This document shows positions 514 through 43,254 of a stretch of DNA of 64,000 nt, piece after piece (position 1 is the stretch's first letter; each line of letters opens with the position of its first letter). A program made the translations under genes and the position numbers. The stretch comes from Nanobdellota archaeon (GTDB taxonomy: Archaea > Aenigmatarchaeota > Aenigmatarchaeia > QMZP01): assembly GCA_043814765.1 (NCBI GenBank), contig JBDRJQ010000028.1:29835-93834 (forward strand). The letters are read 5' to 3'. The notes beneath the pieces were generated by a model that had not been told where the DNA came from, ran no database searches, and saw only the letters and a list, made by a program, of their open reading frames with translations.

Positions 514-2099
514 AAAGAACATTAGAAAAATACAGAATGGTAGTTGATGACATACCTGTTAACATTAGGATTTACGAAGACTCCGCCGAATTTGTTCCTA
601 TTTATGAAGTAACTTTTCCACAGCTAGAGGAAGCTACTACTGCTGCTCTTGAAAAGGTTAGAGAAAAACTGATAACAGAAATAATAATAGAGCCAAGTGA
701 AATTATAGATCCAAGAGAGTATAAGCAGCTAAGAGACAAATTCATAAAAAAAGCAGGCGAGTTGATAGAAAAGGAACTTCCAACAGTAGCGCCAAATGAG
801 AGAAAAATACTAATGGGAACGCTTCTGCATCATTCTCTGGGTTTAGGTTACATCGAAATGCTTCTTGACGATCAAAAACTCGAAGAAATTGTTATCAATA
901 GTTCTAAAGAACCGCTCTGGGTTTATCATATCAAACGTGGCTGGTTAAAAACCAATCTTTCTGTTGAATCAGAGGCGAAAATATACAACTACGCATCTTC
1001 CGTAGGAAGGAGAGTCGGTACGCAAATAACTAATCTTAATCCTTTAATGGATGCGTATCTTCCAAGCGGAGACAGGACCAATGCAACGCTTTTTCCAATA
1101 AGCTCTTCTGGTAACACAATGACTATTCGAAAGTTCGCCAGAAGACCATGGACTATTACAGATTTCATAGAGCTCAAAACAATAACATCAGAAGCAGCTG
1201 CTTTCCTATGGCTAGCTATTCAATACGAACTGAATATTCTTATCGCAGGTGGCACTGCATCTGGTAAGACGTCACTGCTTAACTCGCTTACATGCTTCAT
1301 ACCACCAAACCACAGAATTATTTCAATAGAGGACACAAGAGAGATACAGCTGCCAAAATACCTTCACTGGGTACCTCTCACAACAAGACCTCCTAATCCT
1401 GAAGGAAAAGGAGAGATAACAATGCTTAATTTGATGATAAACGCTCTGAGGATGAGGCCTGACAGAGTGATAGTAGGCGAGATGAGGAGAAGAAAGGAAG
1501 CTGAAGTTTTGTTCGAAGCTATACACACAGGCCATTCTGTGTACTCAACAGTGCACGCTAACACTGCTGAAGAAGCTTACAGACGTCTTGTTAATCCTCC
1601 TATAGGAATACCTCCAGCCATGTTAGGCGGTTTGCAGCTTATAGCTGTCATGCATAGAGACAGAAGAAAAAACATAAGAAGGGTGCTCCAGATATCCGAA
1701 TTATCCATGAGTGGTGAGGTTTCAGACACTAATATAGAGCTTAACACAGTTTTTCGCTGGGTCGCTTCTAATGATACTATTATGAAATTTGCAAAGTCTT
1801 ACAGAACCATGAATGATATAAAACTTTATACAGGCATGTCTGATACTGACATAAAAAATGATCTTGAAGATAAAAGATTCATTTTAAACTGGCTCGTTGA
1901 AAAACAGATAAAAGACATACATGAAGTTGGCAGAATTATTTCTGAATACTATATCAATCCAAGCAAGGTGCTGAAAAAAATTAAAAGCGGTGAAATGGAG
2001 TACAGCAAACAGGCTATTAAACCGCCACAACCAACAGAAAAACCAAAGATTAATTACCCATTAAAAGATAAAACAAAGCACATGACAGAACTTAAATAA
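510..2099 (+). CDS. type II/IV secretion-family ATPase, archaeal FlaI/PilB-like (type IV pilus/archaellum assembly)
   Basis: Walker A GGTASGKTSLLNSL, Walker B DRVIVGEMRR, His-box region HTGHSVYSTVHAN. Length of 529 aa is typical of FlaI/TadA-family ATPases. Confidence 0.8.
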   Translation: MKRTLEKYRMVVDDIPVNIRIYEDSAEFVPIYEVTFPQLEEATTAALEKVREKLITEIIIEPSEIIDPREYKQLRDKFIKKAGELIEKELPTVAPNERKILMGTLLHHSLGLGYIEMLLDDQKLEEIVINSSKEPLWVYHIKRGWLKTNLSVESEAKIYNYASSVGRRVGTQITNLNPLMDAYLPSGDRTNATLFPISSSGNTMTIRKFARRPWTITDFIELKTITSEAAAFLWLAIQYELNILIAGGTASGKTSLLNSLTCFIPPNHRIISIEDTREIQLPKYLHWVPLTTRPPNPEGKGEITMLNLMINALRMRPDRVIVGEMRRRKEAEVLFEAIHTGHSVYSTVHANTAEEAYRRLVNPPIGIPPAMLGGLQLIAVMHRDRRKNIRRVLQISELSMSGEVSDTNIELNTVFRWVASNDTIMKFAKSYRTMNDIKLYTGMSDTDIKNDLEDKRFILNWLVEKQIKDIHEVGRIISEYYINPSKVLKKIKSGEMEYSKQAIKPPQPTEKPKINYPLKDKTKHMTELK

Positions 2100-2158
2100 T
2101 AAACAGTTATAAAGCAACCATTTATTACAAGATAATAGAATATTTATAGAGTAATATT

Positions 2159-2443
2159 ATGGCCGAAGATCAACCAATTAGGGTAAGACTTCCTAGGGGC
2201 AAGGAAGTAATGGGATTTGTTGAGGAATTCTTAGGTGCAAGCAGATTTAAAGTTAGATGCAAAGACGGTCACACAAGAATGTGCAGGATACCTGGAAAGT
2301 TCAGGAAGCGCTTCAGAATGACTGTCGGTGATATTGTTATAATTGAACCGTGGGACGTCCAGCCAGAGGAAAAAGGAGATGTTGTATGGATATACAACAA
2401 GACACAAATGTTTTGGCTAAGAAAACATGGTCACGGGGAATAA
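2159..2443 (+). CDS. eif1a: translation initiation factor aIF-1A
   Basis: 94 aa with S1-like OB fold. VRLPRGKEVMGFVEEFLGASRFKVRCKDGHTRMCRIPGKFRKR...GDIVIIEPWD matches the eIF-1A family. Confidence 0.85.
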   Translation: MAEDQPIRVRLPRGKEVMGFVEEFLGASRFKVRCKDGHTRMCRIPGKFRKRFRMTVGDIVIIEPWDVQPEEKGDVVWIYNKTQMFWLRKHGHGE

Positions 2444-2480
2444 ACGGAGGACTGACAATTTAATATTGTCTTAATTTTTT

Positions 2481-2969
2481 ATGGCAGAAGTTGTTTTGAT
2501 TCCCAATGATAGAAGACCTATTTTAATAGGAAAAAACGGCTCTATTAAGAAAAGAATAGAGAAGCTGACTAATACAAAGATAACAGTAAGAGAAGATGTA
2601 GAGATAGAAGGAGATATTTTTGATGTTGCAAAGGCAAAGGATATAATCACTGCAATTGCGAGAGGATTCTCACCTGAACGCGCTTTTATTTTACTGAATG
2701 AAAATTTTGAGCTAAAAATTATCACATTAAAAGGCCAGACAGATAAGACAATAAAACGTTTGATGGCTCGTGTTATAGGCCGTAAAGGATCAACCAGAAG
2801 AATAATAGAGCTTGAAACCGGTGCAAAGATATCCATTTATGGCAAGACTGTTTCTATAATAGGCGAACTAAAAAAATTGGAAGCTGCTCAGGAAGCGGTT
2901 GAAGCCATCCTGGCAGGCAGAAAACACGGTACTGCCTACAAGAGAATGCTGAGAAAAGTTAAGGATTAA
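2481..2969 (+). CDS. KH-domain RNA-binding protein (Dim2/Pno1-like)
   Basis: Two KH-like GxxG motifs (IGKNGSIKKRIEKL; IGRKGSTRRIIELETG). Lies next to eIF-1A, as in the conserved archaeal eIF1A/KH neighbourhood. Confidence 0.65.
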   Translation: MAEVVLIPNDRRPILIGKNGSIKKRIEKLTNTKITVREDVEIEGDIFDVAKAKDIITAIARGFSPERAFILLNENFELKIITLKGQTDKTIKRLMARVIGRKGSTRRIIELETGAKISIYGKTVSIIGELKKLEAAQEAVEAILAGRKHGTAYKRMLRKVKD

Positions 2970-4060
2970 GCTCTTAGTGTTAATTCGCTTATAGATTCTT
3001 CCTTGTTTATTTTATCTATTGCTTTTGCTATAAGCGGTTCAACAGGAATCTCTTCAAGCCAGTCAAAAGTTTTTCCATGTCGAATAGCATTTGAAGCAAA
3101 TACTCCACTCAAGAAACCATCTTCATACAATTCTCCCAAAAGCTCTTCTGCCCTTCCGGTTAACTGTGCATATGTGCATAAACATTGCATGCTTCTTGCT
3201 CCTCTATCACGGCACTCCTTTCCTAATGCTACTATAGTTGATCCGCTGCCTATAATATCATCAACAGCAAGAACATCCCTGCCTTCAACATTTCCTATAA
3301 GCTCTATACTGTCAACTAAATTCTCTTCTTTATGCACACGTTCTTTGTCTCCTATAACAGTTGGCAATGACATTATAGGTTTACCTGGTTTTGGTTGACC
3401 GTATACTAATAAACCAAGACGTGCTGCATATGCTCTTGCTCTTCCAGCTCCTCCTGGATCTGGCGACAATAAAGAAGTGTTTTCAGTAACTAATTCAGGA
3501 TGATTATCTTTAATATAATCTACAGCTACTGGTCTAAAACTCAGGTCTTCAAAACCCATACCAGAATCTGCATAGCCTCGAATCTGTCTGGCATGAAGAC
3601 TCAAAGTCATTATATAGTTTGCTCCTGCTGTTTTCAAAAACTTAGGCACTAGAGAAGCTGTTATGCCTTCTCTCTGATGTTTTTCATCAGGACTCTGTAT
3701 CTTAAATTGAGCGTCTTGCCTTTGATAAGGAAATGGCAACACAACAGCAGTTATGCTTCCTGCTATTGCTCTTGATGCAGCATCAATTGCTGTAAGCATA
3801 TACATGAAGTTGTCATTAACAGTGTAGTATTCATTACCAGCAAATGATTTTACTCTTTTATTTTCAAGATTTTGAAAGCACTGAATGACATAAACATCTC
3901 TGCCTCTGACATTTTCACCTATTACGCATCGGCCTTCAGAATCTTCAAAATCCCTATCTTCTGCATCTATAAGATGTATTCCAAGCTCTCCTGCGACACC
4001 TTCTGCAAAATATCTTCCAGAATTGTTTGCTATTAAAGCAATTTCTCCTCTATATGACAT
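2966..4060 (-). CDS. prs: ribose-phosphate pyrophosphokinase (PRPP synthetase), longer than typical
   Basis: GRDVYVIQ, LSLHARQIRGY, SPDPGGAGRA and the PRPP-binding loop VDDIIGSGSTIVALGKECRDRGA. Confidence 0.6.
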   Translation of the reverse strand: MSYRGEIALIANNSGRYFAEGVAGELGIHLIDAEDRDFEDSEGRCVIGENVRGRDVYVIQCFQNLENKRVKSFAGNEYYTVNDNFMYMLTAIDAASRAIAGSITAVVLPFPYQRQDAQFKIQSPDEKHQREGITASLVPKFLKTAGANYIMTLSLHARQIRGYADSGMGFEDLSFRPVAVDYIKDNHPELVTENTSLLSPDPGGAGRARAYAARLGLLVYGQPKPGKPIMSLPTVIGDKERVHKEENLVDSIELIGNVEGRDVLAVDDIIGSGSTIVALGKECRDRGARSMQCLCTYAQLTGRAEELLGELYEDGFLSGVFASNAIRHGKTFDWLEEIPVEPLIAKAIDKINKEESISELTLRA

Positions 4061-5523: not shown

Positions 5524-6030
5524 CTATCCACCTTCTTCTTTAGGAATTTCAGCTGGTTTTTCTTCTTTGGGTTGAACCTTTTCTAAAGGTTCATTTTCTA
5601 AATGCTGCTTTGGAGCAACTTCAGGTTTTGCCTTGCCCTTGCTTGTGCGTTTTTCTAGCTTATCAAGCTTGAATTTAGGTATGTCTTTTTTGTCTTTGTA
5701 AACAAGAACCCTAACCTTTGATTCTGCTCTGCCACGATCAGAAAATATCTTCTCTATAAGAATTACATCTTCGTTTATTTTCAAAACCTTTACTATTTCT
5801 TTGGTTAAATTAACACGTGTAGGTGTGGACTGTGAATTATGAGCAACTTGAATGATAAATTCTGTCCTCTTCATTAAAGGATTTTTTCTTTCAGAGACTA
5901 TATCAAGTTTGTAACCTAATTTTGGTCTTGGTTTTTCTTTTTTTACTTCTGCCTTTTCTATCTTAGGAGCCTCTTCAGTAGGTTTTTCCTCTTCAGGTGC
6001 TTTCTCTACTTTGGGTTTATCGTCTGGCAT
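5524..6030 (-). CDS. rps24e: ribosomal protein S24e with Lys/Glu/Pro-rich N- and C-terminal extensions
   Basis: Core LDIVSERKNPLMKRTEFIIQVAHNSQSTPTRVNLTKEIVKVL...FSDRGRAESKVRVLVYKD matches eS24. About 35 aa of N-terminal and 45 aa of C-terminal charged low-complexity extension. Confidence 0.65.
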   Translation of the reverse strand: MPDDKPKVEKAPEEEKPTEEAPKIEKAEVKKEKPRPKLGYKLDIVSERKNPLMKRTEFIIQVAHNSQSTPTRVNLTKEIVKVLKINEDVILIEKIFSDRGRAESKVRVLVYKDKKDIPKFKLDKLEKRTSKGKAKPEVAPKQHLENEPLEKVQPKEEKPAEIPKEEGG

Positions 6031-20678: not shown

Positions 20679-21977
20679 TTATTGCGTGTCCAAAAATTTG
20701 TCTTCAGTCTTTATTTTCTTTCTCATTATGCGTCCTGCGTCTTGTATGAATTTTCTTACATACTCCCTGTTCATCATTATTTGCGACTTTGGCAGTTCAA
20801 GAACTTTGCCATCCTTAACCAAATCCTTCATTCTTGTTAGATCATTAAAAACATCAAAGTATTTTTCAGAAATAAGTCCTGTTTTTATGAGATGTTTTTC
20901 AAAGGCCTTTGGAATCATCTCATCTTTTGCAGGCAGTTTATTCATGGCTTTCAAAAGAGTGATAACAGTTTCTGACATAACAAGCTGTGATTTGTTTATC
21001 ATGTTTTCTCTTTTAAGCACTTCAATCTTGACTATGAGTTTTTGCATGCAACTAACGAATTTTTTGGCCTTTTCAATCCACTCGTCAAGAACTACACCTT
21101 CTATCGTGGTTTTTTCACGGTGCTCTATCTCTTTTCTGACGTCCAGTATGTCTTCAAGCATTTTCACATACTCTTCGTCTAGAAGCTTCATTTTAACAAG
21201 TGTTTTGCGCAGAACACTAGGCGCTTCGCTTGGTCTTGGCGGAGTCTTACCTAAGAACATCAGAACAGCCTGTGCTGATTCAAGCATGGCATAATAGCAG
21301 TCTTCAACAACCATGTAAATTTTAGCATTCTCAACGCGCTTGATTCTTTTTGGTCCCCGTTCAATATACTTCTCAACAGCCTCCCTGGATGGTTTTATTT
21401 CACCCATCTGAAGAAGCCGTTTAATAGGCATGAAAATGTCCTTATCGTACACAGGAACGCCTTCCCGTATGAAATTGAAAACAATGGGATGACCTATTCT
21501 AACCATGTTCCAGAACTCAGTTAGCATGTAAGGCTGCTGCACGGAGAGGTTTGGTGATAATTTCTTTGCTGTAGCAACCATCTCATCCTCAAGCTTTGCA
21601 CGCTCTCCTGGCGATATTCGATGGCGCGTATCATCAATTATAACAAAAACATCAATATCAGACTCCTCTTTAAACTCTTCGCGGGCAGTTGAACCGAACA
21701 GAACAATGGAGCGGATAATAGGTCCGTGCTTTTTTATAAGCTCTTTTGTAAAACTTTTTAGAATTTTAATTCTTTCTTTCTTGCCAATTTTTTCAGGTTT
21801 TTTCGGTTTTTTTTCCTCTGCAGGTTCCTTATCAAAAACCTCAGCCAGCTCAAGAAGCCTTTTTTCAGGTTTTTTTGCTGTGTGTTTTTGACGAGTTTTA
21901 TGTAAGGTTTTTGGTTTAGAAGATTTTTTAACGGTGGCTCTCTTCTTCTTTGTTTTCAGAGTTTTTTTCTTAGCCAT
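20679..21977 (-). CDS. nucleotidyltransferase-domain protein (Pol-beta superfamily) with Lys-rich N-terminal tail and alpha-helical C-terminal domain
   Basis: hG[GS]x9-13Dh[DE]h-type motif SIVLFGSTAREEFKEESDIDVFVIIDD. Confidence 0.55.
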   Translation of the reverse strand: MAKKKTLKTKKKRATVKKSSKPKTLHKTRQKHTAKKPEKRLLELAEVFDKEPAEEKKPKKPEKIGKKERIKILKSFTKELIKKHGPIIRSIVLFGSTAREEFKEESDIDVFVIIDDTRHRISPGERAKLEDEMVATAKKLSPNLSVQQPYMLTEFWNMVRIGHPIVFNFIREGVPVYDKDIFMPIKRLLQMGEIKPSREAVEKYIERGPKRIKRVENAKIYMVVEDCYYAMLESAQAVLMFLGKTPPRPSEAPSVLRKTLVKMKLLDEEYVKMLEDILDVRKEIEHREKTTIEGVVLDEWIEKAKKFVSCMQKLIVKIEVLKRENMINKSQLVMSETVITLLKAMNKLPAKDEMIPKAFEKHLIKTGLISEKYFDVFNDLTRMKDLVKDGKVLELPKSQIMMNREYVRKFIQDAGRIMRKKIKTEDKFLDTQ

Positions 21978-32009: not shown

Positions 32010-32372
32010 TCACTTCTTCAGTGCCTTTATTTTTGAAGCAATGTCAGCAACGATTTTTTTTGCGTCACCTTCTTCAACAACTGCTATTGAAGATGTTGGC
32101 ACGTCAATACCAGCGGATTTTCCCAGTTCAATTTTTGAAGGCACAAATGCGTATGGAACTTGCTTCTCTTCACAAAGTACAGGAATGTGCATCAAAACCT
32201 CTTCAGGCGTGACATCCTCTGCCATTACAACTAGTTTAGCTGTTCCTCTTTCTATTGCTTTTGTAGCCTCGTTTACTCCCTTTCTTATTTTGCCGCTAGC
32301 CTTTGCTACGCTTATTGCTTCATAAACCTTACTAACAAGGTCCTTTGGCATCTCGAATTTTGCTATCGCCAT
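32010..32372 (-). CDS. rpl7ae: ribosomal protein L7Ae (also a C/D and H/ACA snoRNP/RNase P subunit)
   Basis: KASGKIRKGVNEATKAIERGTAKLVVMAEDVTPEE K-turn-binding core. Conserved L7Ae-S28e-L24e cluster. Confidence 0.85.
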   Translation of the reverse strand: MAIAKFEMPKDLVSKVYEAISVAKASGKIRKGVNEATKAIERGTAKLVVMAEDVTPEEVLMHIPVLCEEKQVPYAFVPSKIELGKSAGIDVPTSSIAVVEEGDAKKIVADIASKIKALKK

Positions 32373-32391
32373 ATCATCCCTCCGTTAACAT

Positions 32392-32718
32392 TTAGATTGA
32401 TTTTTTATTTATTGAGTTCTTATTTAAATGCTTGACTAGGTTTTTATAGAAATCTATAGCCTCACTAAGCATTTTTTCACCCTTTTCAGTAATATGGTAT
32501 ATTTTCTTTCTGCCATATTCTTCTTTTCTAACAAGACCTGATTTCCCTAAAAGATACAAAACTTTATAGGCAGTCATAGTACCTGGCTTGAATCCGAATC
32601 TTTTTTCTATTTCTTTGCGCAGAGTGTATGCGTGTGACGGTTCATCTTTAAGTATATGCAATATATATATCCACAAACATTCCCTAGTATTCAGTAACTT
32701 AAGACGTCTAAGAGGCAT
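32392..32718 (-). CDS. PadR-family transcriptional regulator
   Basis: 108 aa winged helix with LWIYILHILKDEPSHAYTLRKEIEKRFGFKPGTMTAYKVLYLLGKSGLV. Confidence 0.7.
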   Translation of the reverse strand: MPLRRLKLLNTRECLWIYILHILKDEPSHAYTLRKEIEKRFGFKPGTMTAYKVLYLLGKSGLVRKEEYGRKKIYHITEKGEKMLSEAIDFYKNLVKHLNKNSINKKSI

Positions 32719-32752
32719 ATTATCTAATTCCTTGATTATCTTTGTCTATTAG

Positions 32753-32786
32753 TTCAAAGACGACTAAAGTCGTCAAACTATATAAT
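32753..32786 (-). promoter_or_regulatory. TATA box ATTATATAG plus palindromic operator TTTGACGAC-TTTA-GTCGTCTTTGAA immediately upstream of the PadR gene
   Basis: Perfect inverted repeat GACGAC/GTCGTC, spacer 4, abutting the TATA element, ~35-65 nt upstream of the PadR ATG (minus strand). Confidence 0.55.
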
Positions 32787-32805
32787 ATTTTACATTTGTA
32801 TAATA

Positions 32806-32910
32806 TAACCTTTACAAAACAATGTCTTTCGTAGTGTCTTGCGTTCGGTTTTGAACGCAGAAAAACAAAACCTTTATATATACATTGTTACTAGGTAATA
32901 GTAACATAGC
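32806..32910 (+). promoter_or_regulatory. promoter block X: TGTCTTTCGTA + GTGTCTTGCGT motifs, TATA (CCTTTATATATA), TAATAGTAACA at predicted TSS; followed by a ~180-nt leader
   Basis: Same motif order recurs at 37080..37200 (block Y). Confidence 0.45.
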
Positions 32911-33086
32911 TCTTTTGAACGGTAAAAGGTTCGCTGAGTTATCTTACACACGGAAAAAAAACTAGTTATTGGGTCTTAATGATCTGATAGCTTTCAACCA
33001 TAATTGGTACACTGGAACTATTTTTCAGCCTTAGGGCTCAATAATGAACGTGTGAATAAAACAAAAAAAATAAGGAGAAAACAGAA

Positions 33087-33839
33087 ATGAAGCTGTTAAA
33101 AACTACTGCCGTTCTTCTGTCGATTTTCTTTGTTCTCTGCATGGCCACTGTTTGCTATGCTGGCCCAGAAAACGGCAACGGCGCAGTTGACATTCTGACA
33201 AAGTCAGATTTGACTGATCTTCATAACACCATAATTATTGGAATTGTGGTGTTCGCATTAATCATGGTTGCGGTTATTCTTATTTTAATGTTTAGACCGC
33301 GACAAACACTTCCAGCAGTTGTTGAACTGGAACCGGAACCTGATAATCCTGAACCCAGCCCTGATTGGATGAGGTCCGGAGCAAAAAGAATAGCCAAAGA
33401 AGCGGTAGCTGGCATCGAAGAGGATCTCTCGATTGATATTGCCGGTGAATTGACAGATTTGGTAATAGGAGCAAGAACTGCTTCTGAAAACGCACGAAGA
33501 GAATTCATGCGTGTTTTCCGTCAAAGATTGAACGGTGGCAGCGATATCGATGCTCTTATAGATGAAGCCATCCGGCTAAGAGTGCGAGAACGGGGAGCTG
33601 AGCTTCCTCCGGAAGTTCTGGAACATGCAACAGATCCAACAGTTACTCAGGAAGAAGTGGATGCTCTTAACGCTGCTGTTAACACTGAAATGGCTCCGGA
33701 CCCGATTCTGACATTACTTGAGCGATTAGTGGATGGTCAGGCTGCTGCAACAGAAGCTATTCGAAATTTGACAGCTGCTGTAACACCTCCCCCTGACGAA
33801 ACATCGCATGCTCCAGACAGTAGCGGCGATGCAGGTTAA
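33087..33839 (+). CDS. secreted/membrane-anchored acidic protein (signal peptide, one TM, Pro/Glu-rich)
   Basis: N-terminal signal MKLLKTTAVLLSIFFVLCMATVCYA, TM IIIGIVVFALIMVAVILILMF. Higher GC than neighbours. AAGGAGA ribosome-binding site. Confidence 0.5.
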   Translation: MKLLKTTAVLLSIFFVLCMATVCYAGPENGNGAVDILTKSDLTDLHNTIIIGIVVFALIMVAVILILMFRPRQTLPAVVELEPEPDNPEPSPDWMRSGAKRIAKEAVAGIEEDLSIDIAGELTDLVIGARTASENARREFMRVFRQRLNGGSDIDALIDEAIRLRVRERGAELPPEVLEHATDPTVTQEEVDALNAAVNTEMAPDPILTLLERLVDGQAAATEAIRNLTAAVTPPPDETSHAPDSSGDAG

Positions 33840-33925
33840 CCCCCAACTGCCCAATAAACATGGGAGGAGAGTCTGTTCAATCAGGCCTCCTCCCAAAAAT
33901 CTCTGAACATTAAACAAGGAGGATT

Positions 33926-34405
33926 ATGATGAGAATCCTAAACATAATCTCATCTTTTTTTATTGCTTTCTGGGGACTGGTTAAGGGATTCTTCACCATT
34001 CTCCTGAAGTGCATTTGGATAGCAATCAAGTGGTTTTTCATAGCCCTTTGGAAACTGCTTAATTGGATCTGGAATAAAATCATTCTTGTCCAGAATTGGT
34101 TCAAAAGGACCAAACTTGGACGGGATTTGCGAAGAGGAAAGCGATGGCCGCGCATCACAGTGATGAGCCTAATGCTTTTCATTCTTTTTTCCGTCTTATG
34201 TTTTTCACTTCTTTTCTCCGGTCATAAAATGACTGGATTAATAATATCATTGTTTATTCTTTTTGGTCTTGTGCCTTTCTTTGGCACATGGGCCAGAAAT
34301 ATGTATCAAGCAGAGAATGCCGAACCAAAAAAGCGGCACTCAATGATTGACCATATTCCCTGGCCGTGGCTGAAAAATCATCCCTGGCGCAGAATTACAG
34401 CATAG
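33926..34405 (+). CDS. Trp-rich polytopic membrane protein
   Basis: 4 TM segments. AGGAGG ribosome-binding site 6 nt upstream. GC-rich island. Confidence 0.45.
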   Translation: MMRILNIISSFFIAFWGLVKGFFTILLKCIWIAIKWFFIALWKLLNWIWNKIILVQNWFKRTKLGRDLRRGKRWPRITVMSLMLFILFSVLCFSLLFSGHKMTGLIISLFILFGLVPFFGTWARNMYQAENAEPKKRHSMIDHIPWPWLKNHPWRRITA

Positions 34406-34459
34406 ATATCCTGATGAGGATGATTCCTGGGTGGAAAAAAAGGAAGAGAGGAGATCATC

Positions 34460-34795
34460 ATGGATGCAATTACCATCTCGGTTGGGCATCTGACATGCCT
34501 GCTATATCTCGCTTATATGGTGGGTTGGGTGCTAACCGAATTTGTCGCATATGCGACAAAAAACTTGAAGAGAAGAGGGGTAATCGTTCTGTTCTTGATT
34601 ATCCTGCTGTGCACCGCTGTTCTGTTGCATAATTTCAACAAATGGGATGCATATGGATCGTTTTTCATGGCGACTCTGTTTGTCTTCCCTCCGGCCGCTT
34701 TGGTGTTGCTTTCTCGAGAGGTAAGAGGAGGCAACAAATCAATTAGGGAGAGGATGAGAATCTTTGGTGGTGGCACTAAAGGAGATTCATCATGA
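34460..34795 (+). CDS. membrane protein (3 TM)
   Basis: GAGAGGAGA ribosome-binding site upstream. Overlaps the next gene by 4 nt (ATGA). Confidence 0.45.
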   Translation: MDAITISVGHLTCLLYLAYMVGWVLTEFVAYATKNLKRRGVIVLFLIILLCTAVLLHNFNKWDAYGSFFMATLFVFPPAALVLLSREVRGGNKSIRERMRIFGGGTKGDSS

Positions 34796-35091
34796 ACAAT
34801 TTTAATTTTATTATCGGAATCCTGGTAATCTCGACGCTTCTTTGTCTGGTTTTTGCTGTATGGAATTATCTGAAGCTCAAACGTTATCAGAACACTTATG
34901 TTTGGGCAAGTGGCAAAACTCAGAAAGGTGAGGACTTTCTCATTCTTTCAATTGAGGGTAAAGATGAGGATGCCACTCAGTATGAGTGCCATCGAGATGA
35001 AGAGGGCAAGATAACAATTATCGGACCTGCTGGTGAAAACCTTAAAGGCATTCAACACACGTTCGGTAACGGATATCGTCCTCGGATTTAG
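34792..35091 (+). CDS. small N-terminally anchored protein
   Basis: One TM then soluble domain. Translationally coupled to the upstream gene. Confidence 0.4.
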   Translation: MNNFNFIIGILVISTLLCLVFAVWNYLKLKRYQNTYVWASGKTQKGEDFLILSIEGKDEDATQYECHRDEEGKITIIGPAGENLKGIQHTFGNGYRPRI

Positions 35092-35176
35092 TTCAGGTAG
35101 AGGATGAGACCTCGTGGAACTTTAGGGTTTGATGGTGAGATACGATCAAAAATCCAAAGACCTAAGGAGGTCAACA

Positions 35177-35764
35177 ATGCAGATCGATTTGAATTACGTA
35201 GTAAACGCCATTCTGACCAACCTGGCATATGCAGTTGCGCTTGGGCTGGTTATGTGGGGAATTTGCAGGCTTCTGATAAAAGAACCTGAGGGCAATTACT
35301 GGGCACCAAGGGTCATGATGGTAATATTCCTGATCTCTGCGCTTGTCTTCACATTTTCTGTTGGAAGAATAACATTCCCAGCAGTTGACAATGCTGTAGA
35401 AAACATTTTCTCAGGTGTTTCAACATCGATAGCAAGTGCAACACCACATCCTGTGGTAAACATTCAGGTTGACACACCTCCTCCTACTGTAGTAATACAG
35501 AAGGAGACGAGTCAGCCAGTGGTCCGCGAAAGCGAACCGGTTCCAGAAACAACAGAAGGGGATACCTCAAATGAGAAATTTTCTGTAGACGGTCAGTTTG
35601 AAGATGGTACACCATACCATCTTTACACGATTGTCAGGGGCAATACCATATACAGCTTGTCCCGCAGATTTGGTGTCACCCAGGATGAACTTATGAGGCG
35701 GAACGATCTTAGGATTGGAACGCCTCTCCGTATCGGGAGGGATCTCAGGATTCCTATCAAATGA
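35177..35764 (+). CDS. membrane-anchored LysM-domain protein
   Basis: C-terminal LysM: YTIVRGNTIYSLSRRFGVTQDELMRRNDLRIGTPLRIGRDLRIP. Start placed at ATG 35177 with AAGGAGG 7 nt upstream; the ORF-track start 35129 is the alternative. Confidence 0.55.
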   Translation: MQIDLNYVVNAILTNLAYAVALGLVMWGICRLLIKEPEGNYWAPRVMMVIFLISALVFTFSVGRITFPAVDNAVENIFSGVSTSIASATPHPVVNIQVDTPPPTVVIQKETSQPVVRESEPVPETTEGDTSNEKFSVDGQFEDGTPYHLYTIVRGNTIYSLSRRFGVTQDELMRRNDLRIGTPLRIGRDLRIPIK

Positions 35765-35903
35765 AGCACAAACAATTGAATAGGTAACTTGGGAGGGGAG
35801 AAAAATCCTCCCTTTCCCTTTTCATATGTCTATCTATAGGGATATATAAATATATTTTACACTAGTAAAGTATTTAAATTTGCAAATACAATTATTTTAC
35901 AGG

Positions 35904-35935
35904 TATAAAATAGTTGACGACTTTATGTCGTCTTT
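35904..35935 (+). promoter_or_regulatory. TATA box TATAAAAT plus palindromic operator TTGACGAC-TTTAT-GTCGTCTTT immediately upstream of the inositol-phosphate synthase gene
   Basis: Near-identical to the PadR-gene operator (32753..32786) but inverted. Overlaps the predicted TSS, 13 nt before the ATG. Confidence 0.5.
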
Positions 35936-35947
35936 AGATATCAGGTG

Positions 35948-37054
35948 ATGTTTTTGAAGGAAATTAAAGTTGCTATCGCAGGAATTGGGAACTGTTGCAG
36001 TTCTCTTATACAGGGAATTCATTATTATAAGAATGTTGACTCAAATGGAGAAAGCATTCCTGGGCTGATGAACAATGTTATTGGGGGTTATAAGATAAGC
36101 GACATAAAACCTGTAGCTGCTTTTGATATTGATATTAGAAAGGTTGGCAGAGATCTGTCTGAAGCTATATTCGCTGAACCAAACTGTACTATAATATTCC
36201 ATAAGGATGTTCCTCATCAGGATGTTGAAGTAAAGATGGCTCCTGTTCTTGATGGTGTAGCTCCTCATATGAAGGAGTTTCCAGACCATCAAACATTCAA
36301 GATTTCTAATGAAAAACCAGTAGATGTAACAAAGGTTCTTAAAGAAAGCGGAGCAGAGATGCTCATCAACTACCTTCCTGTAGGTTCTGAGGACGCTGTA
36401 AGGTATTATGCTCAGGCTGCTTTAGATGCAGGATGTGCTTTTGTTAATTGTATGCCTGTTTTCATTGCGTCCACTGATGAGTGGGCAAAGAAGTTCGAGG
36501 ATAAAGGGCTTCCTATAGTCGGTGATGACATCAAGGCACAGATAGGTGCAACTATAACTCATAGAACACTCGTAAAGTTATTTTCTGATAGAGGTGTAAA
36601 GATAGAAAGAACATATCAGCTTAATACCGGTGGAAACACCGACTTCCTTAACATGATAGAGCGCTCAAGACTCAAAAGCAAGAAGATAAGCAAAACTTCT
36701 TCTGTGCAATCACAGCTACCAACTCCTTTGCATCCTGATAACATACACATAGGACCAAGTGATTATATCCCATGGCAGAAAGACAACAAGATATGTTTCT
36801 TGAGGATAGAAGGAAGGAAGTTTGGAAACGTTCCTACCCATATAGAAGCTCGTCTTTCAGTAGAAGATTCACCCAACAGCGCAGGATGCGTAATAGACGC
36901 AGTGCGCTGCGCAAAGCTAGCATTGGATCGTGGCGTAGGAGGAAGGCTGCTGTCAATTTCAGCATACACAATGAAGCATCCGCCAACACAATATCCTGAT
37001 ACTTTGGCAAAGCAGATGGTTGAAGAGTTCATCAAAGGGGAAAGGGAACGTTAA
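35948..37054 (+). CDS. myo-inositol-1-phosphate (inositol-3-phosphate) synthase
   Basis: N-terminal Rossmann KVAIAGIGNCCSSL. GDDIKAQIGATITHRTLVKLFSDRGVKIERTYQLNTGGNTDFLN resembles the MIPS catalytic region (GxDxKxGxT...NxxGN/D). Start at ATG 35948; GTG 35945 is the alternative. Confidence 0.6.
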   Translation: MFLKEIKVAIAGIGNCCSSLIQGIHYYKNVDSNGESIPGLMNNVIGGYKISDIKPVAAFDIDIRKVGRDLSEAIFAEPNCTIIFHKDVPHQDVEVKMAPVLDGVAPHMKEFPDHQTFKISNEKPVDVTKVLKESGAEMLINYLPVGSEDAVRYYAQAALDAGCAFVNCMPVFIASTDEWAKKFEDKGLPIVGDDIKAQIGATITHRTLVKLFSDRGVKIERTYQLNTGGNTDFLNMIERSRLKSKKISKTSSVQSQLPTPLHPDNIHIGPSDYIPWQKDNKICFLRIEGRKFGNVPTHIEARLSVEDSPNSAGCVIDAVRCAKLALDRGVGGRLLSISAYTMKHPPTQYPDTLAKQMVEEFIKGERER

Positions 37055-37079
37055 AATTTATATAGTATCTTGTTATTTC

Positions 37080-37200
37080 TTTATTGTCTTGCGCAAGACA
37101 AGATTTGTCTTTCGTAATGAAAACAGCACAAATCGAGCTCAAAAAGTGTCTTGCGTACCGATAGCTTTATAAAGCCTTTGTCACTATTTAATAGTAACAA
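37080..37200 (+). promoter_or_regulatory. promoter block Y: palindrome TTGTCTTGCGCAAGACAA, TGTCTTTCGTA, GTGTCTTGCGT, TATA (GCTTTATAAAG), TAATAGTAACA
   Basis: Homologous to block X (32806..32910) with insertions. Lies 36 nt upstream of the ATG of the first gene of the HerA-like operon. Confidence 0.45.
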
Positions 37201-37235: not shown

Positions 37236-37910
37236 ATGAGTAATATATATGTTTCGGAAAATGTTGCAAAACATTTTATACAAGGTGTGACTGATCACGC
37301 CATGGAAGGACAATTGTTAGACATAGAAGGAGAAAAAGAGTTTGTTGTAACATACAGACATGAAGGAAATTTAATTCAAAACACTTTAGTTTTTCCTGTA
37401 AGTGGAAGTATTGAAATTTCAGTAGATTCTTTAAGAAAAAAATATCCAAACATTTACAAAACATTAACAAAAAATAATGATATTGGAGATGCAGATAATG
37501 TTCTTTTATACGAAACAGATTTTACAAAACACAGAGAATTAGTTATTAGCAAAAACGCTAATAATGAAAATTTAGCAAAATATATTGATTTTAATGATAA
37601 TCGTATCCCGTCATATGCAAATAGTGAGTTTGAGCCTGTAGAGGATAATTCTTTAGATAACTTGAAAGAGTCTGCAAATTCAGACTTAGAGTATAAAAGA
37701 GTAAATGGAGTTGTAAGAAACTCACTAACATTCAACTATGGTGAAGAAGAAGCCCAGAGAATGCTAGAAAACTACGGAGAACTTTGGTTTGCTGAAAATG
37801 GTCAATTCGCAGGAGCTAGAGAATGGAATCAATTAGGTGAAGAAAAAGGTTGGGATTTCATGAAAAGGTACACTGAAGATGCAAAAAGGTTTGCACCTAC
37901 AAAAGTTTAG
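37236..37910 (+). CDS. hypothetical protein, paralog 1 of operon (N-terminal YVSEN domain)
   Basis: Start at ATG 37236 with GGAGG 6 nt upstream; the ORF-track start was GTG 37224. MSNIYVSENVAKHF...QNTLVFPVSGSIEISVDSL parallels the next gene. Confidence 0.5.
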   Translation: MSNIYVSENVAKHFIQGVTDHAMEGQLLDIEGEKEFVVTYRHEGNLIQNTLVFPVSGSIEISVDSLRKKYPNIYKTLTKNNDIGDADNVLLYETDFTKHRELVISKNANNENLAKYIDFNDNRIPSYANSEFEPVEDNSLDNLKESANSDLEYKRVNGVVRNSLTFNYGEEEAQRMLENYGELWFAENGQFAGAREWNQLGEEKGWDFMKRYTEDAKRFAPTKV

Positions 37911-37930
37911 AATTAGATTAGAGGTAAAAT

Positions 37931-38485
37931 ATGGACAATAAATATGTTTCAGAGAATATAGCATTGCTTAAGGATGTTTTGGTTAGCTATTGTATTCTAG
38001 AAGGGACATTGATAGAAGGATTGAATGAAAATGAAAGCGGTATCCCAATGTCACCAATGTTCATCAATTCGTATGATGATGAAGATGGAGAATATGTACA
38101 TTTACTTAAATCTGGTTGCGATGTTAAATCTAGAAATACACTTGTATTTGATGTTGTTGATTATGTTGAAATCGATAAAGAAACTTTCGATATAATAAGT
38201 GATACTATGGGCAGAAACAGGCACGTATATACTTCTTCTGAAAAAATAGAAGAAATGAAAAGTATTTACGATCAAGGTAAAAAAGTGCTTTTCCCATTGC
38301 TTCCGGGAAGAACCGATAATTGGATTTACAAAAAATATAGATCAATTGTGGCTAAAGAAAGAATGAAAATATTTAAAGATGTTCCTATAGTTGAAGCCAT
38401 TAGATCTGATTCCGGTAGCAGAAAACATAACAGTTATCCAGCAGGAACAGATTCTGAAAAATTGTTTGAGGGGATATTAGATTAG
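37931..38485 (+). CDS. hypothetical protein, paralog 2 of operon (N-terminal YVSEN domain)
   Basis: MDNKYVSENIALLKDV...RNTLVFDVVDYVEIDKETF. Preceded by the 23-nt element ATTAGATTAGAGGTAAAATATGG. Confidence 0.5.
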   Translation: MDNKYVSENIALLKDVLVSYCILEGTLIEGLNENESGIPMSPMFINSYDDEDGEYVHLLKSGCDVKSRNTLVFDVVDYVEIDKETFDIISDTMGRNRHVYTSSEKIEEMKSIYDQGKKVLFPLLPGRTDNWIYKKYRSIVAKERMKIFKDVPIVEAIRSDSGSRKHNSYPAGTDSEKLFEGILD

Positions 38486-38494
38486 AGGTAAAAT

Positions 38495-39100
38495 ATGGCT
38501 GAAAAGAAAGGAAGAAAATATTTCGATGCAGAAGAACTAGAGGACATCTATTCATCTGGCATAGGTGAGGAACGCAGACATGAATTCTTAGACACACCTA
38601 CATCTTGGGATGACATAGACAAAGAGCCACGTGAAAGAGTGGAAAAGGTTCGCATCAAGACAGTTCAGACAATGCCTCGTCTTGAAGAAGAAGAGATGGA
38701 CAAACTTAAGATAATCAGCCCAAAAATAATTGGCAGTCTTTTTGATAGAGTAAAATTTTTGAAAGAAAGAATAGAAGAAACACAAAACACAATGAAAATG
38801 CGTACTGATATTCATAATGACATGTTAGCAGAGATAACTGAGGATATTAAGGAAAGACAGGGAATGTTGGGAAAGGCCATGAGCCTTGACGAGCAAAGAA
38901 GCATAAAACTTGACATGTCTGTTCTTAGAAAGGAAAAAAGAAAGGAAATAATTCAGTTATGGAGAGATATGTTTGATCTAAGAACTGAACTAAAGGAATT
39001 ACTAGAACAGTTCCAAAATGAACAAAAGCTTGCAGATCTTTTCTCTGAAATAAAACCTGAGAATAATAAGAAGGGAGGCATCGGAGAATCCGATATCTAG
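38495..39100 (+). CDS. highly charged coiled-coil protein
   Basis: Glu/Lys/Arg-rich heptad pattern throughout. Preceded by a second identical copy of the 23-nt element. Confidence 0.5.
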   Translation: MAEKKGRKYFDAEELEDIYSSGIGEERRHEFLDTPTSWDDIDKEPRERVEKVRIKTVQTMPRLEEEEMDKLKIISPKIIGSLFDRVKFLKERIEETQNTMKMRTDIHNDMLAEITEDIKERQGMLGKAMSLDEQRSIKLDMSVLRKEKRKEIIQLWRDMFDLRTELKELLEQFQNEQKLADLFSEIKPENNKKGGIGESDI

Positions 39101-41351: not shown

Positions 41352-41598
41352 GCTCAAACACAACATGTTGTGGATTAATTTTAAATAAGTTAGTGGATAA
41401 AGTATAACTATCACAATAAGTATCATAATCTCAATTCACTAATTTGACTTGCAAAGTCCTTCGCATTAGCTCAACACTAACGCGTCGAATTTAAAAAGAA
41501 TGTTTTCCCATTAGCATCTCGCTAGTGGATAGGATATGCAACATTTCATAAGTGTTGGGTATCCTTTTTCTTGACGACTTCTCAGCGTTAAGCTGATC

Positions 41599-41626
41599 AG
41601 CAGCTAGAAATAGCTGCTATTTTTTT
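41599..41626 (+). terminator. hairpin AGCAGCTA-GAAA-TAGCTGCT followed by ATTTTTTT
   Basis: Perfect 8-bp stem, GAAA loop, T7 run. About 250 nt downstream of the HerA-like gene stop. Confidence 0.45.
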
Positions 41627-42494
41627 GACGACTACCGATTTCTAGAAGACCGTCCAACATGAATTCTACGCACAGCACTCTACAAATTCAGGGTGCAGGT
41701 GTATGAGAGACAGTCTATATGACTAGGCTTGAAATAGGTCTCTCGCTGAATGCAACTCTTTGATGGTAATTCTAGATAACCTGATAGGAGGAGAGACCTG
41801 TTTTTGAAAGTAAGCGTCAGTTTCTGTAACGGATTCTGACGATGGTTATAAAAACAGGGCTTTCACTTCGGTGTTAGCCCTACGAAAACAATCAGCAGCT
41901 TGTCTGCGCTTTCATTTAGCGGTTTCAAGTTCGGAAATCAACATCCGAACCGTTAAGATGTCACAGGTGCGCTTACATATTAGCGCGCCTGTTTTTTGAG
42001 AATACGGAACTTGGGGAAACCCTGGATCCTTTTCTACCAAGAGGAAGAGAGCCACAATTGAAGATTCGGCCTTACTAAAAGCTGGGCCAACCCCTTCATA
42101 AAGGATTGAACCTCTTGGTTTTTTGAAAACAATGCAAAGCCGGATCATAAAAACTGTCCAATGATCCGGCAGCTTAAATAATGGACAGGCAAGATCCACA
42201 ATACATTCGAATCGCGGTTCAAACCACAATTTCGGTTTCGGGCGCTTGTAATCACAGCACGACAGAAGAGTTCTTATTTAATGAACTCACATCGTTTCTC
42301 CACTCATCTGCAAGTAATTCTTCGTCCTGCAGCAGTCTCCTTCCACCTTTCCTTCCGTAACGCCTCCACCGATTCTAGTTTACGGCACAATATCTTCTGG
42401 CACAGTATCTTCTGGGATTGTATAAAACGAAGTAACAATTTCCCAGATTGATACAAATTTAAACGCGTCTCTCTTCCCCCCGTAAAAAGGGAAA

Positions 42495-42531
42495 GTGCCC
42501 GACTCCTTCCGCGACTCGGGCACTTTTTTTT
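42495..42531 (+). terminator. GC-rich hairpin GTGCCCGA-N13-TCGGGCAC followed by TTTTTTTT (intrinsic-terminator-like)
   Basis: 8-bp G/C stem plus T8. Would end a + strand transcript arising in the ORF-free region. Confidence 0.45.
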
Positions 42532-42910
42532 GTCCAGCTCATGACTACCGAAAGCAAGGATCGATGATTTAAACATTTACCTGAAACAGCGTGTAATCGG
42601 CACGCATACTCCAGGAATCAACAGATAGATGAGGAGGCCCGAAAAACAAATTAATAATCGCACGAAAGTTGTATTGGTTTTTCAAAAACCTATTCGGTAA
42701 AATCATTGCACAGCCAACAAGCGGTGCAAAATTAACTCAAAAAAGAGAACGGCACTTTGAGGTAAATGAGACATTATTGAATTTAAGCGACACCGAAAAG
42801 AGCCAATCTTAAACGCAGAAGCGATGATCAAACCATCCTTCTGCTTCTTTACATATATCTACTAAAAGGGATATAAGCAATAATCTGCAAACATGCTTCA
42901 AACAAAAAAA

Positions 42911-43216
42911 TTACTTCTTTTTGATGTACTTCTTGAACCATTTAAGAATTGTCCAGCGAGAAACCTTGATCCCGTGCCTGTGTTTCATCTCCTGCTGCAC
43001 CTCGGACAGAGAGAGGCCTTTACTGTAGAGAGCTACAGCTTTCATTATTGTATCTTTTTTGAACCTCATCCGCAGGAAATTGTCGTTTGGGGTATACTTG
43101 CGTCCGCACTTTTTACAGAGCCGAAGGTGCTTTTTAGTTGACTCGTTATACCTAAAACCTCTCCACACAGTGTTTGTGCTCTGGCAATGCGCACATCTCT
43201 CAATTTTATCTTTCAT
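42911..43216 (-). CDS. zinc-ribbon + HTH transposase-like protein (IS1 InsA-like/ISNCY-like helper); possible IS remnant
   Basis: CAHCQS...C-x-x-C (CKKCGRKY) N-terminal zinc ribbon then HTH GLSLSEVQQEMKHRHGIKVSRWTILKWFKKY. No catalytic transposase ORF nearby. Confidence 0.4.
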   Translation of the reverse strand: MKDKIERCAHCQSTNTVWRGFRYNESTKKHLRLCKKCGRKYTPNDNFLRMRFKKDTIMKAVALYSKGLSLSEVQQEMKHRHGIKVSRWTILKWFKKYIKKK

Positions 43217-43254
43217 ACTTAATTAAACTTATAGGGATATATAAAGCTTTCTCT

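Follow-up and report, generated by a model that had tools for sequence, protein, structure and literature searches.

Two blocks of DNA within a 64-kb stretch of the contig JBDRJQ010000028.1 (hereafter the window, meaning the whole stretch that was analyzed) resemble each other: block X (32806–32910) lies in front of a cassette of five genes, and block Y (37080–37200) lies in front of the operon that encodes a HerA-like ATPase. A preliminary description of the window had read them as homologous promoter blocks recognized by one factor or, alternatively, as attL/attR-like junctions of an integrated element, which raises the question of why two blocks in one genome should look alike. From the window and from loci in other genomes (coded L001 to L158), we conclude, with a probability that we put at roughly 0.7, that X and Y look alike through binding sites for the same two regulators. 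The candidate sites are a 21-bp palindrome, which we call motif A, and the sequence TGTCTTKCG, which we call motif B.

The genes in the window include those for ABCE1/RLI, ribosomal protein L7Ae, and a YGR210-like GTPase, and the HerA-like protein has a 100% identical counterpart in a genome bin labeled “Nanoarchaeota archaeon.” Judged by this gene content, the organism is a DPANN archaeon with a Nanoarchaeota-type genome, and it is therefore appropriate to read X and Y as archaeal promoters composed of a TATA box and a transcription factor B recognition element (BRE).

Anatomy and relatives of blocks X and Y

In both blocks, as in archaeal promoters, a purine-rich BRE is followed by a TATA box that is A/T-rich and ~8 bp long (Table 1), and a CGAAAG-TTTAWAWA pattern was seen in related promoters. 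When X and Y were formally aligned, the motifs fell in the same order, the sequence between the motifs was not conserved, and the spacing differed. A 35-nt core that begins with CTTTATA and ends with TAATAGTAACA was 80% identical (32872–32906 versus 37165–37199), and the longest exact runs common to the two blocks, at 11 nt, coincided with the regulator-site motifs. TGTCTTKCG was found six times in the window, against 0.82 copies expected, with every copy inside X or Y, and TAATAGTAACA was found exactly twice, at 32896 and 37189. The homologous blocks with ordered motifs that had been noticed at the outset are therefore real. What the first reading had missed is that an inverted repeat, motif A, has TAATAGTAACA as its right arm; when up to three mismatches were allowed, motif A matched the window in X and Y only.

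The two motif B copies of X are situated 30 to 50 bp 5′ of the X TATA box (at −50 and −38), and they appear to be similarly distant from a putative TATA box of the divergent PadR gene, near 32780–32790 on the other strand. In Y, the sites at 37085 (plus strand) and 37092 (minus strand) together form the palindrome that had been reported there, TTGTCTTGCGCAAGACAA, at 37083–37100. Placing the starts about 26 nt from the center of each TATA box, following archaeal promoter geometry, we predict that transcription begins at ~32903 in X (about 32901–32906) and at ~37196 in Y, in both cases inside the right arm of motif A. The Y leader would then be 40 nt long and the X leader ~184 nt (32903–33086, followed by the ATG at 33087), in agreement with the earlier estimate of ~180 nt for X. 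We conclude from the sequence that X and Y are two separate archaeal-type BRE/TATA promoters that share two independent cis-elements.

Two further features of X deserve mention. An inverted repeat, TGCGTTC-GGTTTT-GAACGCA (32840–32859), overlaps the 3′ end of the second X motif B site, and the right-hand half of this repeat, CGCAGAAAA, is perhaps a degenerated copy of motif B in inverted orientation. The first 40 nt of the X leader are predicted to fold into a hairpin that is also present in L025 (718–752) and in L001 (about 3455–3500), where a third copy of the promoter and leader, a paralogous one, is found, with one G-C to A-U exchange and a loop of G(G/A)UAAAAG across the copies. Conservation of this hairpin is weakly indicated by the three sequences, and a search of the X leader against Rfam at E values up to 1 gave no match.

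Relatives of the locus were obtained from a metagenome scan with an alignment of HerA, which yielded 80 loci with 43–71% identity over the best segment. One of them, L025, has an orthologue of X (CCTTTATAAATACATTGTTACTACATAATAGTTACA) that is divergent from a PadR gene, is followed by a leader homologous to that of X, and retains the BRE/TATA as CCTTTATAAATA. Counted by hand over 35 positions, X matched its L025 orthologue at 30, Y matched L001 at 29, and X matched Y at 28; the diagnostic bases are TACATTGTTACTA in X and its orthologue versus CCTTTGTCACTA in Y. Since the orthologue in L025 has its own diagnostic bases and leader, X and Y were distinct as early as the common ancestor. These comparisons bear on the possibility that X is a recent duplicate of the Y promoter, acquired by promoter capture, so that the likeness would have no regulatory meaning beyond descent. 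The 80% identity of the core could be explained in this manner, and the two motif B sites of X resemble the Y sites at 37106 and 37147 with the spacer removed. However, the X orthologue occupies a syntenic place in L025 together with its conserved leader, nothing between the motifs is conserved, and tandem motif B pairs 10–13 bp apart are the general layout in unrelated loci. We consider recent duplication very unlikely.

The relatives also bear on the suggestion that a 4.3-kb element, the “GC-rich island” of the preliminary description, has integrated here and that X and Y are its attL/attR-like junctions. As attL and attR would, the two blocks form direct repeats around a segment of a few kilobases, and the five-gene cassette within that segment is missing from L002, where the PadR gene and a myo-inositol-1-phosphate synthase gene are directly divergent. 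The G+C content of the interval is indeed slightly raised (41–44%, versus 32–36% in the immediate flanks), but this is a weak signal, as other parts of the window reach 45%. Unlike attL/attR sites, X and Y enclose an interval that lacks an integrase, a tRNA target, and an empty site in the relatives examined. There is no tRNA gene in the window, and among the eight proteins encoded at 32010–37054 none matched an integrase or recombinase; their matches were to PadR, L7Ae, LysM, inositol-phosphate synthase, DUF1275 (below threshold), or no family. Identity between X and Y is limited to short motifs, with no contiguous core, and the repeats are conserved promoter elements: in dozens of island-free loci, Y is conserved 5′ of the HerA module, and L025 has X-type and Y-type promoters around different genes. 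In L002, PadR is directly beside the synthase gene, but Y is conserved independently and L025 has both X and Y. Moreover, the synthase gene falls within the interval, and it is linked to the HerA operon in 14 of 50 loci and in L001 and L002. On this comparative evidence, Y and the synthase gene are ancestral, the latter being an old neighbor of the HerA operon and not island cargo. The cassette, absent from L002 and replaced by two different genes in L025, is therefore the variable part. Integration of an element bounded by X and Y is, in our judgment, extremely unlikely, and we also set aside the notion of the island as horizontally acquired DNA, given the small G+C shift and the ancestral position of the synthase gene.

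Motif A and TrmB-family regulators

The consensus of motif A is TGTYACTA-N5-TAGTAACA, spanning 21 bp with 19 specified bases. We scanned 596 Gb of reference genomes, one genome per species, for exact occurrences of TTGTYACTANNNAATAGTAACA and obtained 20 matches; by our estimate, ~9 would be expected by chance across the whole collection, and far less than one in its small share of DPANN genomes. An archaeal label was attached to 13 of the matches, and ten of these carried a DPANN name (Aenigmatarchaeota, four; Nanoarchaeota, three; Micrarchaeota, Pacearchaeota, and an uncultured archaeon, one each, the locus of the uncultured archaeon being nearly identical to that from Micrarchaeota). Because DPANN genomes make up a very small share of the collection, we estimate that motif A is enriched in them far more than 100-fold. 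The remaining seven matches carried bacterial labels, and two of those contigs (L014 and L020) look archaeal. L014 (PWHJ01000067, “Bacteroidetes bacterium”) encodes a diphthamide-synthesis gene that is Dph2-like by eye and a TrmB gene, and has a BRE/TATA with motif A; L020 (JBLGBK010000018, “Colwellia polaris”) has an archaeal-type promoter before a pyruvate phosphate dikinase-like gene. Both are probably mis-binned archaeal DNA. In all, 14–15 archaeal bins share the 19 specified bases, each copy being adjacent to a BRE/TATA.

In the archaeal matches, the palindrome begins 0–8 nt after the BRE/TATA (19 nt after a canonical TATA box in L006) or, in L008, L012, and L021, lies 1–4 nt on its 5′ side; in X, Y, L001, and L025 alike, 5 nt separate the TATA box from the palindrome. 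The genes that follow are diverse: their products are secreted proteins of Ig/PKD type, FHA proteins, small membrane proteins, and one protein resembling pyruvate phosphate dikinase. Perfect palindromes precede genes for FHA-domain proteins in a Pacearchaeota bin (L008, 2952–7998) and in an uncultured archaeon (L019, 1221–1724); in L008, two FHA genes are downstream, followed by genes for proteins of 140 and 1212 aa that have no Pfam match. In 729 kb of sequence that had not been selected for motif A, 14 sites matched with at most two mismatches: 11 were in HerA-operon promoters, two were X and its orthologue, and one was an unexamined site in L097. The HerA-operon promoters with motif A at the place equivalent to that in Y were those of L024/L025, L060, L069, L096/L098, and L097/L099/L101/L102. 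Viral contigs contained one match, which was unrelated. We conclude, on the basis of these sequence comparisons, that motif A is a DPANN-wide operator conserved across DPANN phyla.

Several observations connect the palindrome with TrmB-family regulators. In 895 kb of sequence there were three TrmB-family genes, all of them within motif A loci, and in L007 and L014 the TrmB gene is divergent from the palindrome at a distance of 80–130 nt. Four further TrmB orthologues with 51–53% identity (L104, L105, L106/L107, and L108) provided an independent test set. In all four, the best motif A match of the 6.7-kb locus, with one or two mismatches, was in the divergent intergenic region, a coincidence expected by chance at ~1e-4 per locus; L104 had a second match with three mismatches. 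In the test set, the sites immediately follow the TATA box on the side of the divergent gene, whose product is large and often of Ig/PKD type. The palindrome was present in the divergent intergenic region of all six TrmB orthologues examined. The linked genes encode both a TrmB DNA-binding domain and an effector domain.

The TrmB-family regulator and a facing protein of 390–617 aa make up a conserved divergent pair in DPANN (L007, L104–L108, and L156–L158). Several of the partner proteins match Ig-like, PKD, or NPCBM-associated domains, and the partner in L007 has a signal-peptide-like N terminus. Motif A covers the predicted start of the partner gene in the closer TrmB orthologues; in L014, the neighbor of the TrmB gene encodes a small membrane protein.

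The operators known for the TrmB family are TACT-N3-AGTA for Pyrococcus furiosus TrmB, TATCAC-N5-GTGATA for TrmBL1/Tgr, and TACT-N7-8-GAGTA for Halobacterium salinarum VNG1451C, and TrmB proteins activate from sites 5′ of the BRE/TATA and repress from sites 3′ of it (PMC4158304). Motif A contains TACT-N7-AGTA (TGT-TACT-A-N5-T-AGTA-ACA in X and Y), which agrees with these half-sites, and it occupies both of the known positions, either just 5′ of the BRE/TATA or over the start site. It thus resembles the euryarchaeal operators in being a palindromic inverted repeat, in its positions, and in its linkage to TrmB genes. Unlike them, it has longer and very highly conserved arms (TGTTACTA and TAGTAACA) and spans DPANN phyla, and its apparent targets are genes for secreted Ig/PKD proteins, FHA proteins, membrane cassettes, and the HerA-like module rather than for sugar transport and glycolysis, the pyruvate phosphate dikinase-like gene excepted. 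Motif A is known here from sequence and gene linkage. Archaeal repressors that bind over the start site include, for example, MDR1, Phr, and LrpA. Like their sites, motif A is placed as a dimer site between TATA box and start and would block the recruitment of RNA polymerase after binding of TATA-binding protein and transcription factor B; for motif A, in contrast to those repressors, this mechanism is suggested by position. Taken together, this evidence makes it probable that a TrmB-family protein binds motif A.

Could another regulator, such as the PadR protein or a factor peculiar to DPANN, bind motif A instead? The PadR gene is divergent from X in both the window and L025, and no TrmB-family gene is present within the 64-kb window. 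However, the adjacency of PadR is explained by synteny, its gene region in L002 has no motif A match with up to three mismatches, and PadR has a candidate operator of its own, a GACGACT palindrome at 32757–32772; the six TrmB orthologues, in turn, all have motif A in their divergent intergenic region. We regard a non-TrmB binder as rather unlikely. PadR was set aside as a binder of motif B, as it was of motif A, on account of its syntenic adjacency and its own candidate operator.

Motif B and the HerA-like module

Motif B proved to follow the HerA module. In L001/L025 (HerA protein 69% identical), the sequence upstream of the operon contains TGTCTCGCG, TGTCTTGCGTGAGACA, and TGTCTTTCG, and then GCTTTATATACCCTTTGTCACTAGTAAATAGTAACA and an inverted CGCAAGACA; L002 has the same upstream elements in another arrangement, and orthologous arrays were found in L001, L002, and many other HerA loci. 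Removal of near-duplicates left 49 loci with usable upstream sequence. In an unbiased count of 6-mers over the 160 nt 5′ of the first gene of the operon, TTGCGT was enriched 13-fold, CTTGCG 10-fold, and TGTCTT 9.4-fold (present in 36 of the 49 loci), with TATA words also at the top; the same count gave 5.9-fold enrichment for the motif A word AATAGT. At least two copies of TGTCTT were present in 23 of the 49 operon promoters, whereas of 123 control promoters taken from these loci, 5 had that many (p = 1e-10), and most of the positive “controls” were either mis-assigned operon promoters or the promoter just 3′ of the HerA gene. Across the 49 loci, the density of GTCTTKCG was 1.58/kb upstream of the module, 0.67/kb in the 450 nt after HerA, and 0.031/kb elsewhere, that is, ~50-fold enrichment upstream of the module and ~21-fold just downstream.

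In promoters with a callable TATA box, the sites usually formed a direct pair, 10–13 bp apart and 28–50 bp 5′ of the TATA box, often with an inverted copy beside the BRE, and the X pair conforms to this arrangement. Other WGTCTT pairs in the window are at 20699, in coding sequence, and at 5682, where the KCG extension is lacking. In viral contigs, tandem motif B matches numbered 45, approximately the number expected by chance; they fell in high-G+C phage or in coding tandem repeats, and none was related. The genes after the downstream motif B sites are mutually unrelated (NosD-like, EamA, SUI1, and others), and clustering of neighboring open reading frames (ORFs) left only the coiled-coil and HerA genes in essentially every locus, the coiled-coil gene being present in 49 of 50 loci including the window. 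We conclude from these distributions that motif B, TGTCTTKCG(TA) with the core GTCTT, is a signature conserved cis-element of the coiled-coil and HerA-like module across DPANN.

Because motif B follows the module whatever its neighbors, it is most simply bound by a product of the module. We modeled the C-terminal 205 residues of HerA (pLDDT, the predicted local distance difference test, of 92) and obtained a winged helix followed by an alpha/beta domain. The winged helix (about residues 560–632) is MarR/HxlR-like, with pLDDT above 95 over most of the domain, and Foldseek matched the C terminus to HxlR, MarR, SlyA, PadR, the centromere-binding protein AspA, and Sso10a. The ATPase can thus be assigned a DNA-binding-type winged-helix fold with confidence, its sequence specificity being a prediction. 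Loci whose wing reads K-N-K/R carry GTCTT-KCG, and loci whose wing reads R-Q-K/R carry GTCTT-TAC, -CAG, or -TAG. From the model and these correspondences, binding of motif B by the module’s own winged helix is a tentative assignment, at somewhat less than even odds.

The same features could also be read as a sign that motif B arrays serve mainly as loading or recognition sites for a HerA/FtsK-type translocase, with effects on promoters being secondary. The ATPase, a member of the FtsK-HerA superfamily with a winged helix at its C terminus, shows weak NCBIfam similarity to the DNA-translocating ATPase CedD; motif B is an asymmetric 8–9-mer found in both orientations, and its arrays occur on either side of the module, irrespective of the gene that comes next. 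An 8–9-bp motif clustered beside the gene of a HerA-like ATPase with a winged helix is reminiscent of FtsK-gamma with the FtsK orienting polar sequences (KOPS), of SpoIIIE with its recognition sequences (SRS), and of the ParB-parS and AspA-centromere pairs. Unlike the sites of the KOPS and SRS systems, however, motif B is promoter-proximal at fixed distances from the TATA box, which suits transcriptional control, and is not strand-biased genome-wide; the window shows no such skewed distribution, since its six sites are all at two promoters. Unlike FtsK-gamma, the winged helix of the HerA-like protein is of the MarR/HxlR type, and a role in translocation or segregation would be hypothetical, with DNA translocation by the ATPase suggested by analogy with FtsK. 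We would give little credence to loading sites as the main function of the arrays.

A two-input model and its setting

In the model that we propose, a TrmB-family dimer with an effector-binding domain would occupy motif A over the start site and block the recruitment of RNA polymerase, resulting in repression. The factor encoded by the HerA module, for which the winged helix of the ATPase is the likeliest candidate, would act on upstream motif B, copies of which stand in tandem or inverted 20–80 bp 5′ of the TATA box, and would bring about autoregulation or local activation or repression of adjacent promoters. In this genome, promoter X has acquired motif B, by which the membrane/LysM cassette and the HerA-like operon would be wired to the same two inputs, and the X motif B pair, being midway between the X TATA box and the putative PadR TATA box, could act on both of these promoters. 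Given that motif B is a conserved cis-element of the HerA-like operon, co-regulation of that operon and the X cassette is the best reading. The original proposal of co-regulation is supported to this extent, but the single factor that it invoked gives way to two independent elements, and the TAATAGTAACA block that it emphasized is one half of the 21-bp TrmB-linked palindrome. The two motifs also recur elsewhere, as that proposal had anticipated, motif A in DPANN-named bins and motif B in HerA loci.

A number of points weigh against regulation of X and Y by the same two factors. The X orthologue in L025 is without motif B, so the motif at X is lineage-specific and could be non-functional. Motif A was found, with up to two mismatches, in only about six distinct groups of HerA-operon promoters, and it is degenerate in L002. 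With respect to TrmB, the phmmer search that detected no such gene in the window counts here too; the TrmB-linked motif A loci are Micrarchaeota-like and not from Nanoarchaeota; and two distant TrmB homologues (36–43% identity) have other sequences in place of motif A. As for motif B, the reverse sites by the TATA box (CGAAAGAC) overlap CGAAAG, which we read as the local BRE consensus, so that the BRE may account for some of the CTTTCG enrichment. The match between wing residues and motif extension separates two clades, and shared ancestry could explain it. Finally, promoter activity and the sign of regulation are predicted from archaeal promoter geometry. We also observed that the region equivalent to the motif A site in L156, which encodes one of the distant TrmB homologues, contains a GTAAC-N9-GTTAC palindrome.

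The features of the locus are collected in Table 1. Most of the proteins of the X cassette read as hydrophobic and of membrane type, and the last has a LysM domain. The synthase gene is preceded by an intergenic region of its own, 180 nt long. In the Y operon, which is tightly packed with intergenic gaps of 9–20 nt, the genes of 224 and 184 aa are lineage-specific.

Table 1. Positions of the promoter elements and genes around blocks X and Y, numbered from the first nucleotide of the window
Feature	Position	Strand	Remarks
PadR-family regulator gene	32392–32718	−	Divergent from X; Pfam PadR, E = 8e-13
X motif B pair	TGTCTTTCG 32823–32831, TGTCTTGCG 32835–32843	+	Tandem, 12 bp start to start
X BRE-like AAAACC, then TATA box TTTATATA (32873–32880)	32868–32880	+	Read from sequence
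X motif A, TGTTACTA-GGTAA-TAGTAACA	32886–32906	+	Begins 5 nt after TATA box
X leader 5′ hairpin, loop GGUAAAAG	32906–32942	+	Folds, z = −3.8 and −3.7
Five-gene cassette, read as driven by X	33087–35764	+	250, 159, 111, 99, and 211 aa
myo-Inositol-1-phosphate synthase gene	35945–37054	+	Pfam, E = 5e-35
Y motif B sites (four)	37085+, 37092−, 37106+, 37147+ (span 37083–37155)	Both	Motif match
Y BRE-like GATAGC, then TATA box TTTATAAA (37166–37173)	37160–37173	+	Read from sequence
Y motif A, TGTCACTA-TTTAA-TAGTAACA	37179–37199	+	Begins 5 nt after TATA box
First three genes of the Y operon	37236–39100	+	224, 184, and 201 aa
Coiled-coil partner gene, 201 aa	38495–39100	+	Third in Y operon; conserved
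HerA/FtsK-superfamily ATPase gene, 745 aa	39114–41351	+	Pfam DUF87; 413 homologues

The PadR gene holds the same divergent position in L025 and L002 as in the window. A short sequence, TTGACGACT, is present four times in the window against 0.24 copies expected (32757–32776, 35914–35922, 41571–41579, and 41625–41633). One copy is within the palindrome GACGACTAAAGTCGTC, near the predicted PadR start, one follows a putative synthase TATA box, and two are 3′ of the HerA gene, after T-runs; L025 has a variant palindrome of the same type, GATGACT...AGTCATC. The GACGACT palindrome, common to the synthase promoter, is a candidate PadR operator that would link PadR, the synthase gene, and the region after HerA. 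Three genomes have palindromes of the type TTTACA-N2-4-TGTAWA in the promoter regions of their PadR and synthase genes (32785–32806, 35852–35873, and 35886–35915 in the window, 7105–7161 in L002, and 940–1000 in L001), and these may be operators or simply divergent TATA boxes.

Where the synthase gene is linked to the HerA module in the 50 non-redundant loci, it is 2.8–4.4 kb upstream, and PadR is linked in six of these loci. A gene for a CDP-alcohol phosphatidyltransferase is present in L002 between the synthase/PadR neighbors and the HerA module. In L001, the minus strand at 2096–3371, between the synthase gene and the Y region, carries a 351-aa ORF for which Pfam gave no match and a gene for a helix-turn-helix (HTH) protein of 71 aa, both absent from the window.

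On the other side of the module, no convincing protein gene could be recognized in ~1.9 kb of the window 3′ of the HerA gene (41352–43254), where T-runs follow terminator-like hairpins (about 41596–41625 and 42487–42535) and TATA-like sequences are present; L001 has a similar gene-free stretch of 1.4 kb. Rfam returned only chance-level small-RNA matches 3′ of the HerA gene and, at gathering thresholds, nothing in the window. Possible degenerate motif B sites, GACTTGCA and GTCCTTCG, are 10 nt apart near 41446–41465. A 101-aa ORF on the minus strand (42911–43216) has weak Zn-ribbon and HTH-like (Clr5) matches and is preceded by a textbook GAAAGCTTTATATA promoter at about 43241–43254 on the same strand.

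DPANN archaea are mostly uncultivated, and to our knowledge very little is known about the control of their transcription; our literature search returned nothing relevant on either motif or on HerA with a winged helix in DPANN. As archaeal operators, the two elements are ordinary in kind, but they appear to be undescribed, and their conservation across DPANN is unusually high. Within the window, the comparison identifies X and Y as regulatory DNA of an ordinary kind rather than as the edges of a mobile element.

A more far-reaching possibility, drawn by analogy and one to which we attach little weight, is that the winged helix of the ATPase reads the GTCTTKCG arrays beside its own operon, and at promoter X in this genome, as loading or centromere-like sites of a DPANN-specific, motif-guided translocase, with the whole set under the control of a probably sugar-sensing TrmB protein. 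That set would include the module, the surface-protein cassettes, the secreted Ig/PKD proteins, and the FHA proteins, and such an arrangement would tie host-derived nutrients to the surface of the symbiont and to its DNA-handling apparatus.

Motif A, with the same 19 bases in bins of Aenigmatarchaeota, Micrarchaeota, Pacearchaeota, and Nanoarchaeota and with its tie to TrmB, offers a handle for the prediction of regulons from metagenomes alone, and it points to secreted or surface proteins and to the conserved HerA-like module as targets. Motif B marks a widespread, uncharacterized module of a coiled-coil protein and a HerA-like ATPase with a winged helix, and, in light of the structural model, it suggests that this ATPase may bind DNA in a sequence-specific manner beside its own gene.

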